In this document: positions 2,202-39,139 of the stretch, one piece after another
Layout: each line of letters begins with the position of its first letter
Position numbering within the stretch: the first letter of the stretch is position 1
From: a virus
Lineage: Duplodnaviria > Heunggongvirae > Uroviricota > Caudoviricetes
Length of the DNA stretch: 64,000 bases
IMG/VR virus record: IMGVR_UViG_3300045988_134250
Strand: one strand, 5' to 3'
The notes under the pieces: model-generated
What the model was told of the DNA's origin: nothing
Databases searched by the model: none
Seen by the model: the letters and a program-made list of their open reading frames with translations, nothing else
Position numbers and translations under genes: made by a program

Positions 2202-2969
2202 TCACCCCATAGATATCGAGGTTTCGGTAATAATACGTTTTGCGTCCAACTCCCATGCTGTGATCACGTCTGCAATCACACTTATCGGCGCTTGTGTGGC
2301 ATAAATACGCTCTTCTCCAATTGGTGCTGAAACATCCGTAAAGCCGACTTCTTTGGCATCCTGTATCGAGCAAATCAGCGGGACCGGGACACGAACAAGG
2401 TGAGTGGTTGCTTCAAATTGTGTACCTGTCATCAGGCGAAGCCGTGCGCCCAGCGAATTACACATCAGACTCATGGTCGCTTTATCAGTTGCCATTAACG
2501 TAACGTCATACGTCAGAATGGCCTGGGTGTATTCCAGTTCTGCTAAAGGCATTCCGGTATCCGGTTCGCAAAAACTGGCTACTTTTTTGCGGTCAATCTG
2601 CTGATCATCGTTGATATAATTGATATCCATATTGCGTGAGATATTGACCAGGGGGAGAGCATCCCGGTTAATGTTCTGGTTTTCAGGTTTTCTCCCTTGC
2701 CCGGCATTTGCGCGACGAACTGCTTTAAGAAACTCGATCGCATTGTCGAAACGGGCCACATAGACACGCTCTGCTGGTGGACGATTCAGGAATGACGCAA
2801 AGCGTTTTTCTTCCGGCGCGGGGGCCACCAGTAAGATATCAGAAAAAATGTTGCTGATTAGCGTCGCAAACGCGTTATCCACGTTTTCAAAGCCCGTGGT
2901 CTGGAATTTTCCTGTGCGTGAGGTTTGCCATTCACCTGTTCGCGCCAGGAGGGTTTTATTTGAAGTCAT
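2202..2969 (-). CDS. Hypothetical phage protein
   Basis: 255 aa ORF, same operon, overlaps the upstream gene at 2966-2969. Confidence 0.35.
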   Translation of the reverse strand: MTSNKTLLARTGEWQTSRTGKFQTTGFENVDNAFATLISNIFSDILLVAPAPEEKRFASFLNRPPAERVYVARFDNAIEFLKAVRRANAGQGRKPENQNINRDALPLVNISRNMDINYINDDQQIDRKKVASFCEPDTGMPLAELEYTQAILTYDVTLMATDKATMSLMCNSLGARLRLMTGTQFEATTHLVRVPVPLICSIQDAKEVGFTDVSAPIGEERIYATQAPISVIADVITAWELDAKRIITETSISMG

Positions 2970-3769
2970 TCGATCACTCCGTTTTGAGTCGTATCAAAAT
3001 TCCTGGCAGGTATGCAGTAGTAAAGCGAACCAACATGCTGTGTGCCGTAGCTAAAAATACGGTGCACGTACCACCAGCGGCGCGCTACGCCGTTTACCAT
3101 CTCTTCATTCCATTCAAGAATTGAGCCGACGGGGACGTTATTTGCTGCAATACGCAGAATCAGAACATCATCGGTTAAGCCATCCTGCTCACCGTCTGCG
3201 TCAATCGCATGGAAAGAGTCACGCCCGTCAGGGTTATCCAGCACATAAACGATTTCAGGTTCCTGGTAAGTCAGTTCGCGTTGGTTGTTATCCAGTTCGG
3301 TGAATGACTCTTCTCCTGTTTCGTCGCTGACTACCCCATATGTGCCAACATCTGGTCGATATAAGAGAGCCTGAAACGCGTCTGGGCTGGATTCAATAAT
3401 CAGCATCCAGTCTGCGCGGATTTGGTCGTTAAAGGCTTTATGCCCGTTATAGCGTGCTTTTAACTGTGGAGTCGGTTCTCTGCCAGCCAGGGAAGATGGA
3501 AGTATGGCTATATCTGATTCGCCAGCATCCGGAGTAAGGCCACCGTTGCTATCAGCAAAATTATCATGGCTATCAGCTTTGGCGGCGGGTTGCTCTTCCA
3601 GAATGCTGAATGAATCCGAACCGGTATTGCCATGTTCCGGCGCGCCTCCTGCATTCGCTTCAATCGGCGCTGGCGTTTCTCTCTGCGTGCTGTCATGTTC
3701 TGACTCCTTACTTGCCAGGTTTGCATCGTCAGCAAACCATTCGTCAAAACGGCCCATAAGCATCCTCAA
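2966..3769 (-). CDS. Hypothetical acidic phage protein
   Basis: 267 aa ORF, Asp/Glu-rich N-terminal half; first gene of the minus-strand block. Confidence 0.35.
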   Translation of the reverse strand: MRMLMGRFDEWFADDANLASKESEHDSTQRETPAPIEANAGGAPEHGNTGSDSFSILEEQPAAKADSHDNFADSNGGLTPDAGESDIAILPSSLAGREPTPQLKARYNGHKAFNDQIRADWMLIIESSPDAFQALLYRPDVGTYGVVSDETGEESFTELDNNQRELTYQEPEIVYVLDNPDGRDSFHAIDADGEQDGLTDDVLILRIAANNVPVGSILEWNEEMVNGVARRWWYVHRIFSYGTQHVGSLYYCIPARNFDTTQNGVIE

Positions 3770-36159: not shown

Positions 36160-36602
36160 AACGTTTCCTTTTTTACACGCGCGACTATCCCCCGGAAGTA
36201 CCGGTAGTGATGTCGTAACTTCGTATTAATTAAGGGGTACAGCCTGAGCGGCTATATGATGAATTGAAAGGAGTTGTGGCGGTGGTGCCTCCACCTGCCA
36301 GGTTAGCCACTCCTGGCGACGTCACTTATCAGAACGTAGTGAATGAAAATGGCTTCGTCACGAGCGCATAGCCGCAATTACCACAACGGAAACGGCGCTC
36401 ACGCTAATTAAACGCCTTTTCCTGTTGTGCGCCGTGCTCTTCCGGCTGTCACACCGAATCGCCAGGATGGTGAATCCGCAGTCCGACGCTATGAACGGGG
36501 CTTGCACATTCCGGCTACCTGGTGTGCCCATGCAGTGTTAGTAAAAGGTACCTAACAGCTACACCAGACCGCTAACGACGCATGTGCCATACGCCGTGTT
36601 AC

Positions 36603-36678
36603 AACCAAATGTGGTGGCCCCTACCGGACTTGAACCGGTGACCGTGCGATTATGAGTCGCCCGCTCTAACCACTGAGC
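36603..36678 (-). tRNA. tRNA-Ile2-type (anticodon CAU; ileX-like)
   Basis: GGCCCTTTAGCTCAGTGGTTAGAGCGGGCGACTCATAATCGC...GGTTCAAGTCCGGTAGGGGCCACCA; near-identical to recalled E. coli ileX; encoded CCA. Confidence 0.8.
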
Positions 36679-37116
36679 TAAAGGGCCAGATTACTGTTAA
36701 TTACGCTTACGCTTTTTGCCAGAACCGCGTAAGGCTTTTGCCGCTTGCTCTACCCCGTATGCAACCACCAGCAGAAACAATAATGTCCACTCCGGGTTTT
36801 TATCGGCAAACGCCCAAAAATCCATCACTTGCAGCCACCTTTTAAGACAAAACGCCATTGCTGTTAGGTTGCGGTGCCGGGCGCCTCCCGGTGACGTTAA
36901 CCAGTTAACAATTAACGCCGGATCACTTATGGATTCTCGTTACGCCAGTAAAAAGACCACCTTTACTGTTTTAACTGTTCCGCGTGCGCTTAGCCGCATT
37001 CACCGCAATGGTAAGAGCATTTGGCTGACTGGGCGGCGATGACGCCTGTACGCATTTGGTGATCCGGTTCTGCTTCCGGCATTCGCTTAATTAGCCAAAT
37101 ACCCTTAATGTTGCAC

Positions 37117-37203
37117 TGGCGGAGAGTAATGGAATCGAACCATCATCGCTTGCGCAATGGGACGGTTTTCAAGACCGCTTGAGCACCATGCTCCCTACTC
37201 TCC
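37117..37203 (-). tRNA. tRNA-Ser (anticodon UGA), type II with long variable arm; atypical D-arm
   Basis: 7-bp acceptor GGAGAGT/ACTCTCC, anticodon stem-loop CGGTCTTGAAAACCG as in E. coli serT, T-arm GATGG-TTCGATT-CCATT, discriminator G, CCA. Confidence 0.6.
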
Positions 37204-37338
37204 CGTTATTGTGGCGACCGGTGCTGATCTCCGGCTTGCGGTTATTTCAGACTCTCACGGGCGTTTAATTGCCCCGCCGAACAGCTCTTTTCCGCAATAG
37301 CTGCAATGTCTTTCGCGCATCAGCCTGCGCATTCACCA

Positions 37339-37428
37339 CAATGTTGAGAACACTGGTTGTCACGCTGCAACGCAACATTTATTCGTAGATTGGGATATGA
37401 CCCCGTTACGCCAGTGTTCTCAACGTTG
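37339..37428 (-). repeat. Long hairpin element (18-bp stem, one mismatch) next to a degenerate tRNA 3'-end remnant
   Basis: caatgttgagaacactgg ... ccagtgttctcaacgttg; followed by gtgccggtta, which resembles the tRNA-Thr 3' end. Confidence 0.5.
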
Positions 37429-37575
37429 TAGTGCCGGTTACGGTTCCGGCCAGACCTCTTCCTCAACGGGGTGTTCTCCATACGGACTACCGTTTATTGG
37501 TCGTTCCTGCGGTTTATGTTGTGAAGCCAGATGCTTATCTTCTGGTTGCTTCAAAGAGCTGCACTTCATCACAAC

Positions 37576-37649
37576 GGTAAGAGCATTTATGGCTCGCATC
37601 GCGGGAAAAAGCCCACGGTAGAGAGTCGAACTCTACAAATGCTCTTACC
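37576..37649 (-). repeat. Long hairpin element (13-bp perfect stem, 48-nt loop) directly 3' of tRNA-Thr
   Basis: ggtaagagcattt ... aaatgctcttacc; the same 13-mer ggtaagagcattt recurs at 37012. Confidence 0.5.
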
Positions 37650-37657
37650 TGTTGTGT

Positions 37658-37733
37658 TGGTGCCGGTTAACGGGATCGAACCGCTGACCATTCGCTTACA
37701 AAGCGACTGCTCTACCAACTGAGCTAAACCGGC
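37658..37733 (-). tRNA. tRNA-Thr (anticodon UGU)
   Basis: GCCGGTTTAGCTCAGTTGGTAGAGCAGTCGCTTTGTAAGCGA...AGCGGTTCGATCCCGTTAACCGGCACCA; folds canonically. Confidence 0.8.
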
Positions 37734-37737
37734 AATT

Positions 37738-37824
37738 TGGTGGGGAGTGATGGAGTCGAACCACCCGAGTCGCAATGACAGTAGATTTACAGTCTACCCC
37801 GCTACCCCTACGGACTAACTCCCC
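37738..37824 (-). tRNA. tRNA-Tyr (anticodon GUA), long variable arm
   Basis: Acceptor GGGGAGT/ACTCCCC, anticodon arm GTAGA-CTGTAAA-TCTAC, T-arm GGTGG-TTCGACT-CCATC, CCA. Confidence 0.65.
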
Positions 37825-37829
37825 TAAAT

Positions 37830-37904
37830 TGGCGATGGTGGGTGGATTCGAACCACCGACCAGTTGGTTAACAGCCAACTGCTCTACCGCTGAGCTACAC
37901 CATC
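37830..37904 (-). tRNA. tRNA-Asn (anticodon GUU)
   Basis: GATGGTGTAGCTCAGCGGTAGAGCAGTTGGCTGTTAACCAACTGG...GGTGGTTCGAATCCACCCACCATCGCCA; acceptor GATGGTG/CACCATC. Confidence 0.75.
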
Positions 37905-39139
37905 ACTTGCCGGGTACGTCTCCGGCGAGGGCTTCCACCTCCGTATGCTTTTCGGCGCACCGCGCCCTGGCTGCAATTCGGTAACAGGGGATGCACAACC
38001 CTGGCTTCCAGCGTGATTAGCGCCTTCAGCATGACGGGATATACCCGTTACAAGAAGTTCTCCCAGGATGCCATTAAGCAATGGCTGTTACGCGGGAAGG
38101 ACGCAACAGGTAAGGGCGCTGACCAGAAAGACCTGACCCTTCTCATTCATCTGGTTAATCACACCAGCGCCCTTGCCTGTTATGCCTCCCCGTTCCCTAA
38201 TACACAGACGGGGACACTCTGCGGTCGATTTTTTTGACGGGGGACGACTCATACCCCGTGGCGTCTGGCTTCTTAGCCCGCTACCATCATCAGATCATCG
38301 TTTGCATTTACTTTAATGGTCAGTTTCTAAACCGCCGCAAAGTCGCTAACCATGACGAAAACCCTAAAAAAGCCCACCCGAAGATGGGCAAATACGCTAC
38401 ATCTCACACAAGAAAGAAGCCGACTGCCTGAGCTGGATTCACTTTCAAATGCCCGCTGAAAGGGATCACAAGTCGGCTTCTTTCTTGATGCGGCACTCTC
38501 TCCGCCCGTCACCGCTCTGTCTCGGTTGTCGCGTTTGCCACGCCAGCCGTAACGAGGTTTAAAGTCTTTACACGTTTCCATCACTCGACTGCCGTCTGTG
38601 GCTGTTCGTTGCAGCGGGGGTGCCTCCCCCTGGGGATATCCCCGGCCTTACCCCATTCTTTCAAGACACAATGCAAGGCCACATCCGCATAGGTGCATTA
38701 CCGCAACATTAAGGAGACTCAGGGCAAAAGGTAACCGCCACAAAAATCCCTATGCCTCCTTAATGTTGAAGATGTGCATTGATGATTAGATGCAGCATGT
38801 ACCGTTACTCTCTGCCGGACCATCATCAATGAACACCTTAAAAAGACCTTCCGTGGCTCAACATGTATTGTCGTTTACTCCGCAAAGTGCTCTCTCTGAA
38901 ACCACTTTCCGCACTAAACCTGCTGAACTTTGGCCTGCACGGTGCCAAAGCGTGCTCTTGCATTACTATACATTTCTAACACTTTAATTTGTTAAATGCT
39001 GGTGGGCGAACAATAACCAATAAGTGACTATCAAGCCCAGCAAGCGAAACGTGGGTACCGCCCACCAGCAAGGAAAATTCTATGTTAAGTTATCTTCACA
39101 ATCAATACATTCGAATTGTGATTTTAGATTTCTAACACA

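Follow-up and report, generated by a model that had tools for sequence, protein, structure and literature searches.

The closest described relatives of the RNAs analyzed here are STnc100, which has been detected by RT-PCR (PMC12370729), and PasD, an abundant Hfq-bound sRNA that adjoins Q in lambdoid prophages and that a 2026 preprint relates structurally to STnc100 (bioRxiv 10.64898/2026.05.13.724894). We found no literature description of the hairpin partner or of the tRNA link reported below for elements of this kind. Small stable RNAs also occur beside phage tRNAs in T4, where species 1 and 2 (rnaC and rnaD), of unknown function, have tRNA-like features, are co-transcribed with the tRNAs and are released by tRNA-processing enzymes. 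To our knowledge these are not a cross-phage family and they have no hairpin partner, unlike the S element described here. In mitochondrial transcripts, tRNA-shaped elements act as cleavage signals within polycistronic RNA (tRNA punctuation), and P1 uses RNase P on a non-tRNA precursor, the C4 RNA.

The stretch of DNA that we analyzed (64,000 nt; hereafter, the window) is a D6/P1-like phage-plasmid. We are confident that its tRNA array, which like all features below is encoded on the minus strand, is part of an untranslated stretch of ~2.2 kb in an early operon, that this stretch is homologous to the leader of the P1 "ban operon," and that it holds five functional tRNA genes and four copies of a bipartite module. 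What an earlier note on this DNA had called hairpin trailers are copies of a widespread, strongly conserved and almost undescribed phage RNA module with two parts, a long hairpin (H) and a multi-helix element (S). Taken whole, our explanation—this identity together with a role in punctuating the precursor RNA—has in our judgment a probability of about 0.5.

Upstream, an intrinsic terminator (38366..38389, from a terminator scan) closes an sRNA-like segment that P1 annotates as a "dicF-like region," and the tRNA array sits downstream of it. Toward the other end lie a tciC-like small membrane ORF (36697..36825; 42 aa, 39% identity to P1 TciC, E = 3e-8), without the tciA and tciB found in the P1 and D6 gene maps, and a segment (36440..36610) homologous to the beginning of the PL leader in mEp460-type lambdoid phages, which lack N (comparison with L009:2265-2375); by blastn, the mEp460 leader matches P1, D6, and Ro157c2 at this same position.

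Five tRNAs, all minus-strand, are called by ARAGORN and backed by Rfam tRNA models at 42–76 bits, which bears out the earlier note's five co-oriented genes, including its Ser-TGA and Tyr-GTA candidates; that P1 carries three (Asn, Thr, Ile) agrees with the P1 record. Four encode CCA: tRNA-Asn (GUU; 37830..37904; 75.5 bits; 74/75 identical to Ro157c2 and 68/76 to P1), the class II tRNA-Tyr (GUA; 37738..37824; 41.9 bits; identical to phage Ro157c2 at 87/87 positions), tRNA-Thr (UGU; 37658..37733; 67.2 bits; 74/76 to Ro157c2, 66/76 to P1), and the class II tRNA-Ser (UGA; 37117..37203). The last has the atypical D-arm already remarked upon, an unusually long D stem because of which its best Rfam match is tRNA-Sec (43.5 bits, under that family's threshold); it is identical at 86/87 positions to the D6 tRNA-Ser, a gene whose record notes "AA not called by tRNAscan-SE." The fifth, with a CAU anticodon (36612..36687; 66.7 bits), is called Met by ARAGORN, yet homology identifies it as a tRNA-Ile2 (lysidine, reading AUA), since 75/76 positions match P1 trnI, annotated as an ileX-like tRNA-Ile2. 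The tRNAs are real and match codons over-used by the phage: per 1000 codons, window ORFs use AUA 12.2, ACA 14.7, UCA 12.3, and AAU 26.2 times, versus approximately 4.3, 7.1, 7.2, and 17.7 in E. coli.

The S element begins with a closing stem, P1, whose 5' strand is followed by a short junction and the P2 hairpin; a variable insert of 13 to ~180 nt comes next, and a P4 hairpin directly adjoins the P1 3' strand. Two near-invariant loops, those of P2 and P4, complement each other (GCUGA / UCAGC). This helix order and the complementary loops give a cloverleaf-like layout, with an acceptor-like stem, a D-like arm, the insert at the anticodon position, and a T-like arm. A P2/P4 loop–loop contact is predicted from the complementarity, the invariant loops providing no covariation signal. 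S has no fixed encoded CCA and no sequence similarity to tRNA; its 3' tails are A/C-rich.

The copy of the main type, S-B (37206..37344), scores 76.8 bits with the R1 covariance model (E = 3e-18). It runs from P1 through AAU, a P2 hairpin GCGCA[GGCUGA]UGCGC, the variable region, and a P4 hairpin GCCGG[AGAUCAGCA]CCGGU to the P1 3' strand, and it ends 4 nt before tRNA-Ser starts. It is 95–99% identical to PL leaders of lambdoid phages, with the insert exchanged between lineages. Two copies are of the STnc100 type: S-C (36866..37011; P4 pentaloop CCGGG-AGGCG-CCCGG), directly 5' of the tciC-like ORF, which scores 39.1 bits against Rfam STnc100 (under the gathering score of 47; E = 2.5e-6) and 24.6 bits with R1 (E = 1.7e-4), and S-D (36271..36389; P4 GGUGG-AGGCA-CCACC), the last module ahead of the protein genes, which directly follows an H hairpin. 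The fourth, S-A (37425..37575; core 37516-37577), is of the Sasha/SPN9CC type and invariant in five P1-like phages; the outer stem covaries among its homologues in Sasha and SPN9CC, which reach R1 E-values of 0.002 to 0.0025. We assign S-A and S-D as S by position and fold, their own covariance scores being within noise (S-A, the window's third-best match, 12.1 bits, E = 0.34; S-D, 9.4 bits, E = 1.7). Minimum free energy (MFE) folds of S-B, S-C, and S-D independently yield one architecture, recovering P1, P2, and P4 in S-B, the same layout in S-C (z = -2.6), and the canonical helix order in S-D (z = -2.1), although the thermodynamic z-scores of S units are modest (-1.1 to -2.6). A degenerate S remnant (37909-37926) stands 4 nt ahead of tRNA-Asn.

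The distal part of S-A (37425-37450) consists of a P4-like hairpin and the closing strand, and it is here that a decayed tRNA-Thr 3' end had been suggested. The likeness is real at 37431-37450 (~13/14 nt), but the 3' end of an S element is the better interpretation of this stretch (GCCGG-AACCGUAA-CCGGC-AC-UACAAC), which shows no variation among P1, P7, D6, and Ro157c2 and recurs in Sasha and Magnus.

Covariation in S is strong across the family. Among 60 diverse units, 95% of cells pair, versus 27–50% with the partner column slid, and 12 pairs change on both sides (0/500 shuffles reach the observed values); a second anchor adds the P2 stem variants GCGUA/UACGC, GCACA/UGUGC, and GCCCG/CGGGC. 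As these alignments were gathered by exact-match anchors, part of the S invariance arises by construction. Exact 22-mer and 23-mer cores of the main type each occur in at least 120 IMG/VR contigs, and the 22-mer occurs in 111 stretches of species-representative bacterial genomes across Proteobacteria, from Enterobacterales to Burkholderiales, Pseudomonas, Aeromonas, some Alphaproteobacteria, and Geobacteraceae. Of 5426 complete E. coli genomes, 1108 (~20%) contain a match to the H-B/S-B segment, and no chromosomal row among the matches listed has an annotated feature over the module. H/S modules are also present in lambdoid, T1-like, N4-like, Ackermannviridae, and P22-like phages and in proteobacterial prophages. 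S is a member of a large phage and prophage RNA family of which STnc100 is the only branch cataloged in Rfam, and the earlier suggestion of a structure specific to this cluster fails on the presence of the same modules in unrelated phages and prophages across Proteobacteria.

H is a long hairpin that comes before an S and after a tRNA or another S. Compensatory changes maintain its stem; its loop is hypervariable and constitutes a replaceable slot; in a Massilia genome, an intact tRNA-Gly fills it. Specifically, H-A (37570..37656) has flank X CACAAC, the perfect 13-bp stem with a 48-nt loop that had been noticed 3' of tRNA-Thr (37576-37588 / 37637-37649; inverted repeat I7), and flank Y GUUGUG, and it folds at -44.4 kcal/mol (MFE). 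The loop contains a T-arm-like hairpin (37618-37636; GUAGAG-UUCGACU-CUCUAC), a second hairpin (37600-37617), and a conserved strand, AUGCGAGCCAU; across the 71 IMG/VR contigs that have this loop type, the stems covary. In related phages the arms persist through compensatory changes and the loops differ among the window, P1/D6, and P7, the loop being replaced in P1/D6 as well as P7/Ro157c2; that of P1 and D6 holds an anticodon-less mini-tRNA made of a D-arm and a T-arm, AGAGGGUUCGAAUCCCUAC.

H-B (37334..37433; 98% conserved in P1, P7, and D6; MFE -52.8 kcal/mol) is the second hairpin previously placed at 37339-37428; the hairpin is present, and its 23-nt arms (37334-37356 / 37411-37433; inverted repeat I2), to which X (CACUACAAC) and Y (AUUGUGGUG) belong, are 91% complementary. 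Two further copies were absent from the earlier note. H-C (37003..37116; X GUGCAAC, Y AUUGCGG; MFE -47.9 kcal/mol, z = -2.6) follows tRNA-Ser and has imperfect 31-nt arms (37005-37035 / 37084-37114; inverted repeat I1), and its 3' arm, AAAUGCUCUUACC, is common to H-A (14-nt shared arm; inverted repeat I5). H-D (36382..36429; X CACAAC, Y GUUGUG), a short form recognized by its fold and conserved in D6, is a terminator-like stem without a true U tract. The recurring flank motif corresponds to a four-copy direct-repeat family, D2 (36373, 36995, 37328, and 37561), of which only two copies are exact, and at up to three mismatches the bare motif is found 9 times in the window versus 7.3 expected by chance. 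As the bare motif is no commoner than chance, support for the hairpins comes from position, from folding of the trailers (z = -6.3 for H-A and -5.3 for H-B), and from the covariance model.

A tmRNA-like tag module (38179..38364) lies upstream of the array in the same operon, beyond the region that the earlier note covered. It comprises a conserved 5' part, a resume-like GCA, a 10-codon frame with its stop, a covarying hairpin, and a pseudoknot. The frame reads ANDDLMMVAG plus stop (38273-38305) and ANDDLMMVAA in P1, and 22 further distinct instances carry 10-codon tags of the form AN[DE][DE]...A; in the window's copy we read no canonical in-frame start codon, and against Rfam the module gives only weak permuted-tmRNA matches. 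On its 3' side, likewise beyond that region, is a hairpin seen in the sequence, H0 (38102..38184), and the order tag, pseudoknot, H, S is repeated in other phages.

H, S, and tRNAs are linked. Across phages, H bases covary with the variable part of P1 (AACAC/GUGUU, AUCAU/AUGAU, CCACAAG/CUUGUGG). Of the 32 tRNAs in S loci, 31 point the same way as S and 28 are no more than 600 nt from it; in 10 cases only 3–10 nt separate the S end from the start of the following tRNA, as in tRNA-to-tRNA spacing, and in one locus a tRNA sits inside an S insert (L129). Only ~11–15% of S loci have a nearby tRNA and only ~25–30% of S have H beside them (strict ungapped test), so tRNA processing is not the family's sole role. 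Mosaicism falls at module borders, as with a 161-nt insertion exactly at an S/H junction in Ro157c2. The copies are old, horizontally shuffled building blocks rather than local duplicates: each has its closer relatives in other phages and not in neighboring copies (for S-B, the lambdoid PL leaders; for H-A, Enterobacter phage CobraSix at ~82% identity), which rejects recent serial duplication. The proposal of a serially duplicated and decaying tRNA-plus-trailer unit was right about repeated, tRNA-linked, transcribed-strand units with tRNA-derived debris, but not about their origin.

For the function of the module we tentatively propose, at less than even odds, that it punctuates a polycistronic tRNA/ncRNA precursor through RNA folding and processing. 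The array would be transcribed as a single precursor, in which strand Y, joining H to S, could pair back with X to lengthen the H stem or the tRNA acceptor stem, or alternatively pair forward with X' and close S; by switching Y from X to X', S folding would free the upstream tRNA's trailer. X equals X' (at least 4/5 nt) in 61/91 loci with an H hairpin, an equality that could also be a DNA-level direct repeat and not a selected RNA switch. Cuts of the tRNA type would then release tRNAs and stable S RNAs, the candidate enzymes being RNase P on the 5' flank of each tRNA and of S, and RNase E or RNase III within or near H, such that the module would serve as both punctuation and folding timer. RNase P is said to process the P1/P7 C4 RNA precursor (reportedly described by Hartmann et al. 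in 1995). The abundant Hfq-bound sRNAs already described would be S copies that elsewhere carry a terminator. For this phage, we infer all of these processing steps.

The main rival to punctuation, which we consider unlikely, is processive antitermination or an anti-Rho activity, with H-S acting in cis on elongating RNA polymerase (like put RNA or boxA/nut) or hiding a C-rich Rho-loading sequence. Long untranslated tRNA/ncRNA stretches and genes past terminators would thereby be transcribed, and, with the tether cut by tRNA processing, the polymerase would be re-armed by the new copy that follows each tRNA. Genomic position is consistent with this: S or H-S occupies classic antiterminator sites, namely the ~780-nt PL leader of lambdoid phages mEp460, WGPS2, and 1720a-02 (where no N gene is annotated and a terminator is close behind), the stretch directly upstream of an N-like gene in SPN9CC, and, in CobraSix, MII_001, and many prophages, the place just past Q and the terminator of Q, and the array itself is downstream of a strong terminator without another promoter-like site. 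Terminator-like sites are ~3x enriched within 160 nt after S (60/210 versus 37/420 random windows), and a Proteobacteria-wide partner (RNA polymerase, Nus factors) would account for the invariant loops. However, S is also found between translated genes and directly adjoining tRNAs, and neither sequence nor model similarity to HK022 putL or putR was detected. The H-A and H-C 3' arms contain UGCUCUUAC, which is boxA-like (consensus UGCUCUUUA or CGCUCUUAC), but this string is base-paired inside H and missing from many family members with entirely different arms.

Quite unlikely, and compatible with punctuation rather than exclusive of it, is that the S units are genes for trans-acting Hfq-dependent sRNAs of the STnc100/PasD class embedded in a tRNA operon, which would pair with host or phage mRNAs once released, hairpins and tRNAs merely supplying processing sites. 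S-C is a sub-threshold STnc100 match, a terminator stands right behind ~12–29% of S units, and A/C-rich 3' tails would suit Hfq binding; targets have been mapped for PasD, which is abundant and Hfq-bound and to which STnc100 is structurally related (bioRxiv 10.64898/2026.05.13.724894; PMC12370729). Yet the window copies have neither terminator nor U tail, conservation from Enterobacterales to Burkholderiales concerns structural cores and not a plausible seed for a shared mRNA target, and four or five differing copies in 2 kb would be unusual for a regulator.

We regard as improbable a role at the DNA level, in which conserved cores and X...X' direct repeats are recombination linkers or cassette borders that swap tRNA genes and small modules between phages, RNA structure being secondary. 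Homology to other phages does start and stop at module borders (lambdoid matches begin at the H-B 3' arm or at Y), H loops and S inserts are replaced wholesale with flanks kept, and the Ro157c2 insertion and the frequent X = X' equality fit this pattern. The covariation, however, preserves pairing and not sequence, including G-U pairs, which make sense on the transcribed strand alone; S always has the orientation of the tRNAs and operons; flank sequences vary, unlike the AAC/GUU cores of attC sites; and such different phages seem to have no obvious recombinase in common. Least probable by far is the earlier note's reading of serial duplication and decay within the phage, or of cluster-specific terminators or processing sites, for although H-A and H-C share a 14-nt arm, H loops hold tRNA-like debris and 37431-37450 resembles a tRNA-Thr 3' end, it is largely refuted by distribution and covariation—the modules predate the P1/D6 split, occur in unrelated phages and are maintained by compensatory change—and a terminator scan of the window finds no U tract behind any copy (near the array, a T-rich tail follows just one terminator-like site, 38366-38389), which rules out H/S modules as intrinsic terminators.

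Returning to known systems, GOLLD and ROOL are likewise phage and prophage ncRNAs beside tRNA genes, and a variable region in them sometimes contains a tRNA, but they are far larger, unrelated in sequence and structure and without Rfam matches here, whereas H-S is small, modular, and repeated. With HK022 put, lambda nut, and rrn boxA, the module shares the nature of a structured cis-encoded RNA and a position in promoter-proximal leaders of early and late operons, upstream of terminators, and after tRNAs, as in rrn spacers; it differs in having no similarity to put, a boxA-like string that is paired and not conserved in the family, and no evident dedicated protein partner. The tag module resembles tmRNA in its GCA resume-like codon, 10-codon AN[DE][DE]...A tag, stop in a hairpin loop, and following pseudoknot, and the H-A loop is arranged like a tmRNA tRNA-like domain in permuted order, with a long helix, then a T-arm, a closed acceptor-like hairpin, and an unpaired D-like strand. 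An H-A-type hairpin lies directly 5' of the tag module in MII_001-type prophages, in the gene order of two-piece tmRNA. Unlike tmRNA, the phage module has no G3:U70 pair and no CCA, ARAGORN finds no tmRNA and Rfam scores are far under threshold, similarity to E. coli ssrA is confined to the tag, and in the window the tag ends AG and not AA and the tag module and H-A are ~600 nt apart.

T4 rnaC and rnaD share with S, in the features outlined above, the status of small RNAs with tRNA-like features beside phage tRNAs. As in tRNA punctuation, S would present a tRNA-shaped element within a polycistronic transcript, with cleavage at S as our proposal, although its stems are longer than those of tRNA and its predicted loop–loop contact is unlike the tRNA elbow. 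The nearest likeness is to STnc100 (Rfam RF02076) and PasD, with which S shares the closing stem caUGGUG...CACCAug, the AAU junction, the 5' hairpin, the terminal 5-bp hairpin adjoining the 3' strand, and a prophage setting beside Q, tRNAs, or lysis genes, S-C and S-D belonging to the STnc100 type. The Rfam model misses the main S type (S-B), which has other invariant loops and reaches far past Gammaproteobacteria, and the window copies, without terminators, are internal to a tRNA array.

The long hairpins that lie between the tRNA genes of the window are a local instance of a large and so far unannotated RNA family, in which a hairpin with a hypervariable loop (H; H-A to H-D, all on the minus strand) is followed by a multi-helix RNA element (S; S-A to S-D). 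The earlier note had reported such hairpins and a repeated flank motif, both of which sit at the positions it claimed, and two hairpins join those it listed—one after tRNA-Ser and one at 36382-36429. Hairpins A and B are far more stably folded than their shuffled counterparts (z = -6.3 and -5.3, respectively). The recurrence of the flank motif holds as to position, but, with ≤3 mismatches allowed, the 15-nt motif by itself is no more frequent in the window than expected by chance, and the case for modules therefore rests on other evidence. A terminator role, which that note had left as an option, is ruled out: intrinsic terminators require a GC-rich hairpin plus a U tract, and a terminator scan found a U tract after none of H-A, H-B, H-C and H-D.

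On the transcribed strand, GUUGYGGUGAAU... opens S directly 3' of each H, and S closes ~60-150 nt further on with ...CACCRCAAC; all four window units end in a short hairpin set against the closing strand. An alignment of 60 diverse S units (A1) defines the helices. Specifically, stem P1 (a helix, not the phage) consists of GGUG/CACC plus 3-5 variable pairs and covaries strongly, hairpins P2 (GCGCA/UGCGC, loop GGCUGA) and P4 (GCCGG/CCGGC, loop AGAUCAGCA) both carry compensatory changes, and GCUGA of the P2 loop is complementary to UCAGC of the P4 loop, invariantly so in A1. Pairing is found in 95% of A1 cells versus 27-50% when the partner column is slid, 12 pairs are changed on both sides, and none of 500 shuffles reached the observed values. 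A second anchor set supplied many additional P2 variants, again with pairing retained. Modeled in this way, S would adopt a cloverleaf topology (i.e., closing stem, short junction, 5' hairpin, variable insert, and 3' hairpin abutting the closing strand). An Rfam scan found no tRNA sequence similarity in S, and an S that encodes CCA or could be aminoacylated is rejected, as CCA after stem P1 is not above composition expectation and G3:U70 is absent.

R1, a covariance model derived from A1, was searched against the window with its filters disabled and scores S-B (37206-37344, minus strand) at 76.8 bits (E = 3e-18), S-C (36866-37011, minus) at 24.6 bits (E = 1.7e-4), S-A (37516-37577, minus) at 12.1 bits (E = 0.34) and S-D (36271-36389, minus) at 9.4 bits (E = 1.7). 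The features by which we define main-type S—a significant R1 match with stem P1, P2 and P4 paired—are present in S-B and S-C, and independent minimum free energy folds of S-B, S-C and S-D give the same architecture. By type, S-B is main, S-A is probably of the Sasha/SPN9CC type, and S-C and, probably, S-D belong to the STnc100 type, in which the P4 loop is a pentaloop, AGGCR; the scores of S-A and S-D do not by themselves separate them from noise. The Rfam STnc100 model (RF02076) scores S-C at 39.1 bits against a gathering threshold of 47, over model positions 31-147 only, in a match that begins exactly at GGUGAAU behind hairpin C; it gives none for S-A, S-B or S-D at E up to 10. S-C and S-D resemble STnc100 in their GGUG/CACC closing stem, AAU junction and 5' hairpin, and in a terminal hairpin of 5 bp that adjoins the 3' strand; both are near-members of that family. 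Neither S nor H otherwise belongs to a known Rfam family, the mir-*, Plastid-ycf2 and MicA matches being noise or tRNA antisense. A hammerhead-like CUGAUG...GAAA in S-B is likewise discarded: there is no space for stem II, GAAA is not conserved in the family, and Rfam ribozyme models gave no matches.

Where H exists, its stem runs on into variable nucleotides at its 3' flank (Y) that are also the 5' strand of stem P1. The 5' flank (X) covaries with Y across phages and matches the 3' terminus of S (X'; ≥4 of 5 nt) at 61 of 91 loci; as X pairs with Y and equals X', Y can pair with only one of two partners at a time. Under strict ungapped criteria, H stands beside ~25-30% of S units. In five aligned P1-like phages the arms of H-A are retained by compensatory changes and the loop is wholly swapped: a T-arm-like hairpin, a second hairpin and the strand AUGCGAGCCAU in the window, a mini-tRNA without anticodon in phages P1 and D6, and a short, unrelated loop in P7 and Ro157c2. 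The H-A-type loop occurs in 71 IMG/VR contigs. In a Massilia genome the slot is filled by an intact tRNA-Gly between CACACA and UGUGUG, followed by S and then tRNA-Pro. What had been taken for a decayed tRNA-Thr remnant, GCCGG-AACCGUAA-CCGGC-AC-UACAAC, instead looks like P4 of S-A followed by its closing strand, and is invariant in 5/5 P1-like phages.

The module motifs occupy the same positions in P1, P7, D6 and Ro157c2, and the suggestion that the structures are specific to this cluster fails, as module pieces recur in lambdoid, Enterobacter, SPN9CC, Sasha, T1-like, N4-like, Ackermannviridae and Edwardsiella phages. They lie in the PL leaders of lambdoid phages without an annotated N there (mEp460, an Stx2a phage and 1720a-02; 95-99% identity), downstream of Q in Enterobacter phages (~82% identity), immediately upstream of an N-like gene in the P22-like SPN9CC, and between head and tail genes in Sasha. 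A 40-nt core, always non-coding and often adjoining tRNAs, is ~92% identical in T1-like, N4-like and Ackermannviridae phages and an Edwardsiella phage. An exact 22-mer (GGTGAATGCGCAGGCTGATGCG) and an exact 23-mer (GCCGGAGATCAGCACCGGCCACC) each occur in at least 120 IMG/VR contigs, and from either anchor the other half lies 53-207 nt away in most of the matches listed. Among species-representative genomes, 111 stretches also contain the 22-mer; they belong to Enterobacterales, Burkholderiales, Pseudomonas, Aeromonas, Halomonadaceae and Xanthomonadales, to some Alphaproteobacteria and Geobacteraceae, and to a few MAGs of other phyla. Across the range from Enterobacterales to Burkholderiales, these 22-23-nt cores stay identical. 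The H-B/S-B segment is carried by about a fifth of complete E. coli genomes (1108/5426), with no RefSeq feature annotated over the module among the matches listed. The family also extends to Stx-converting and other lambdoid prophages, virulent T1-, N4- and Vi1-like phages, and the model phage P1, and no Rfam model detects its main S type. In Rfam 15 and the searchable literature (subscription journals lie outside its coverage), we found no description of the main S type or its breadth across Proteobacteria, nor of the cloverleaf-like layout, H slot, array grammar or association with a tmRNA-like tag; literature on phage tmRNA-like RNAs, tRNA-like phage RNAs and P1 ban operon tRNAs likewise held nothing describing these modules. 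Such conservation points to a conserved host partner, e.g., RNase P, RNA polymerase, Hfq or the ribosome.

For a P1/D6-like phage-plasmid, the tRNA cluster as such is unremarkable. ARAGORN and Rfam tRNA models both recover the five co-oriented genes first proposed from sequence, Ser and Tyr included (Asn-GTT, Tyr-GTA, Thr-TGT, Ser-TGA and CAT; all minus strand), each with a cloverleaf, a defined anticodon and a 3' CCA. The atypical D-arm ascribed to the Ser gene is borne out: this tRNA, with anticodon UGA and a class II variable arm, scores best on the tRNA-Sec model (43.5 bits vs. a threshold of 47) because of its long D stem. Judged by identity, the set is a mosaic, with Asn-Tyr-Thr corresponding to a Ro157c2 block (74/75, 87/87 and 74/76), tRNA-Ser to the D6 gene (86/87), and the CAT tRNA to phage P1 trnI (75/76), annotated in P1 as tRNA-Ile2; the last is also 68/76 identical to an ileX sequence, and this homology, together with the enrichment of AUA codons in the window ORFs, makes it a putative tRNA-Ile2, with a lysidine that TilS would introduce, rather than a tRNA-Met. 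Usage of AUA, ACA, UCA and AAU in the window ORFs is well above E. coli levels, an excess consistent with functional tRNAs compensating for codon usage.

The array region is 100% identical to an E. coli plasmid (NZ_CP035876.1), the closest named phages to the window are D6, P7, Ro157c2 and P1, and downstream gene order agrees with D6. On the P1 gene map the homologous stretch is the C1-controlled ban operon, in the order promoter, 'dicF-like region', tRNA-Asn, tRNA-Thr, tciABC, tRNA-Ile and then ban. At 36697-37011 (minus) the window lacks the tciA and tciB of P1/D6, and the STnc100-like S-C leads directly into a 42-aa tciC-like ORF, 39% identical to P1 TciC; in phage P1 the 5' leader of tciA is an S unit equivalent to S-C. 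Just after the CAU tRNA, 36440-36610 (minus) shares homology with the initial ~110 nt of the PL leader transcript in mEp460-type lambdoid phages, which makes the operon leader of the P1 family a mosaic of pieces from lambdoid leaders. An sRNA-like segment at 38366-38489 (minus), which a strong terminator closes, is unlike the P1 'dicF-like region' except in the terminator itself, and Rfam gives no DicF there, only weak MicA and STnc240 noise. In related lambdoid loci (L009:1-169 and L005:1868-1941) Rfam sRNAs scoring above threshold adjoin the modules, namely isrK, a truncated C4 antisense RNA and, just after Q, isrJ; none of the three is found in the window region.

Two P1 genes, upl and plp (2660-3229 of our P1 locus, ~37200-37660 of the window), lie on the strand opposite the operon, overlying S-B, H-B, S-A and H-A. 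The P1 copy of S-B beneath these ORFs scores 68 bits with R1, and the plp reading frame is broken in the window, which suggests annotation artefacts. Both are probably spurious ORFs over structured RNA, and the P1 reference annotation is probably in need of correction; more generally, phage and plasmid annotation pipelines overlook these elements.

Among the 120 viral S loci listed (1.08 Mb), 31 of 32 tRNAs have the orientation of S and 28 are ≤600 nt away, and only 13 of the 120 loci have a tRNA within 500 nt; bacterial loci show a similar tRNA pattern, and the S family is not confined to tRNA clusters. In ten cases the tRNA starts 3-10 nt past the end of S. Given this co-orientation and spacing, S in arrays behaves as a tRNA-equivalent unit. 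Variable inserts of S can contain a complete tRNA or a mini-tRNA with D-arm and T-arm and without anticodon arm, as at L129 (tRNA-Pro) and L093:3942-4058. In T1-like, N4-like and Sasha phages, UGUAGGGGUAUGUAUGG occurs inside a hairpin between S and the tRNAs (L013:1625-1660, L015:2280-2300 and L007:2690-2710); this motif was not seen in the window. Flanking ORFs of GC-rich genomes were mostly uninformative, being spurious. Terminator-like sites just downstream of S are enriched ~3-fold (60/210 vs. 37/420), which agrees with the terminator-bearing sRNA forms reported for PasD (bioRxiv 10.64898/2026.05.13.724894).

These data establish the existence, structure, spread, orientation and modular exchange of the S and H elements. 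As to what they do, we tentatively favor (at a probability of roughly 0.3-0.35) a role as folding and processing punctuation, in which S and H would mark off the units of one polycistronic tRNA/ncRNA precursor; the cloverleaf-like layout, tRNA-like spacing, tRNA slot and Y switch are what recommend it. The main rival, processive antitermination or protection from Rho, strikes us as unlikely. It gains from the position of S in the PL leaders of lambdoid phages without an annotated N there, after Q and upstream of N, and from the setting of the array: the only sigma-70-like promoter match nearby (TTGATT-17-TAGAAT; 39077-39105, minus) lies upstream of the only terminator-like site with a T-rich tail (38366-38389), and both lie upstream of the array, such that the five tRNAs would rely on terminator read-through or an unrecognised promoter. 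However, the HK022 immunity region, when compared, had neither the motif nor R1 similarity at putL/putR, so put RNA of that type, which has a two-stem fold and binds the beta' zinc-binding domain of the polymerase, is rejected on sequence; and a lambda nut or rrn boxA, with its single-stranded GCUCUUUA core, does not fit either, since the boxA-like UGCUCUUAC in the 3' arms of H-A and H-C is paired within a 13-bp stem and is not conserved in the family, many members having unrelated arms in its place. S and H may also serve as trans-acting sRNAs or as linkers at the DNA level, and each of these roles is compatible with the other readings. Integron attC-like sites (RYYYAAC/GTTRRRY cores) can be set aside, as the flanks vary freely (e.g., AUCAU/AUGAU, ACAGGAG/CUCCUGU). 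Whether as punctuation or otherwise, the function of S and H would bear on the expression of long untranslated phage tRNA arrays, on the swapping of tRNA sets between phages, and on the true nature of STnc100 and PasD.

Upstream of the tRNAs, just after the terminator, lies a tag-coding module at 38179-38364 (minus), with its tag frame at 38273-38305 and the sequence ...AAAGUAAAU-GCA AAC GAU GAU CUG AUG AUG GUA GCG GGC UAA. The encoded tag, ANDDLMMVAG, starts from a resume-like GCA and runs to a stop, and ends in AG rather than AA; read by eye, the copy in the window lacks a canonical start codon in frame. A 10-codon frame from GCA is present in all 22 further distinct instances, which come from P1-like, lambdoid, T1-like, N4-like and Ackermannviridae phages and encode ANDDLMMVAA (P1), ANDDLMMAAA (P7), ANDDQFLAVA, ANDEQFLAVA, ANEEMYLAVA, ANEEVYLAVA, ANEEMYLAAA, ANDDVVLMAA, ANDDVILMAA and ANDDLMLMAA; the peptide is kept although codons for D/E and Ala change. 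The stop codon lies within a hairpin loop with compensatory changes between copies (seen by eye; RNAalifold did not predict the hairpin), and a separate covarying hairpin and pseudoknot lie 3' of the tag. Usually, an H 3' arm directly precedes the module, and H and S follow it. It is present in 697/5426 complete E. coli genomes, and 24 of 25 RefSeq rows inspected bear no annotation at the match. We regard the module as an unexplained, potentially important observation, which raises the possibility of phages tampering with ribosome rescue.

It is conceivable, if doubtful, that H, S and the tag module form an unrecognised phage RNA toolkit, spread across Proteobacteria and directed at the translation machinery of the host. 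It would comprise tRNA-shaped S RNAs, hairpin slots holding tRNAs or tRNA-like domains, and a tmRNA-like tag-coding RNA, in some prophages in two-piece tmRNA gene order. Were this so, phage P1 would encode a trans-translation-like or tmRNA-mimicking RNA, with its tag ANDDLMMVAA in the ban operon leader, and plp and upl would be artefacts.

Membership in the tmRNA family, standard or two-piece, is rejected on the tRNA-like domain: the acceptor-like hairpin of H-A differs in having G:U at the fourth pair rather than the third (G3:U70) and lacks CCA. ARAGORN called no tmRNA in the window, its single call in related loci reusing a tRNA-Met, and Rfam gave weak matches of 17-29 bits (thresholds 47-84) and none in six further loci. 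Homology to E. coli ssrA beyond the tag is not significant (z -0.4 to 3.5), nor does a consistent tRNA-like domain precede every tag module, the preceding H loops being variable and mostly not tRNA-like. The tag module has the anatomy of a tmRNA mRNA-like domain, i.e., an Ala resume codon, a short tag (AG-ended in the window), a stop codon in a hairpin, and a pseudoknot. The elements of the H-A-type loop follow the permuted order of a tmRNA tRNA-like domain, and in MII_001-type prophages this loop leads directly into the tag module, an arrangement that corresponds to two-piece tmRNA gene order.
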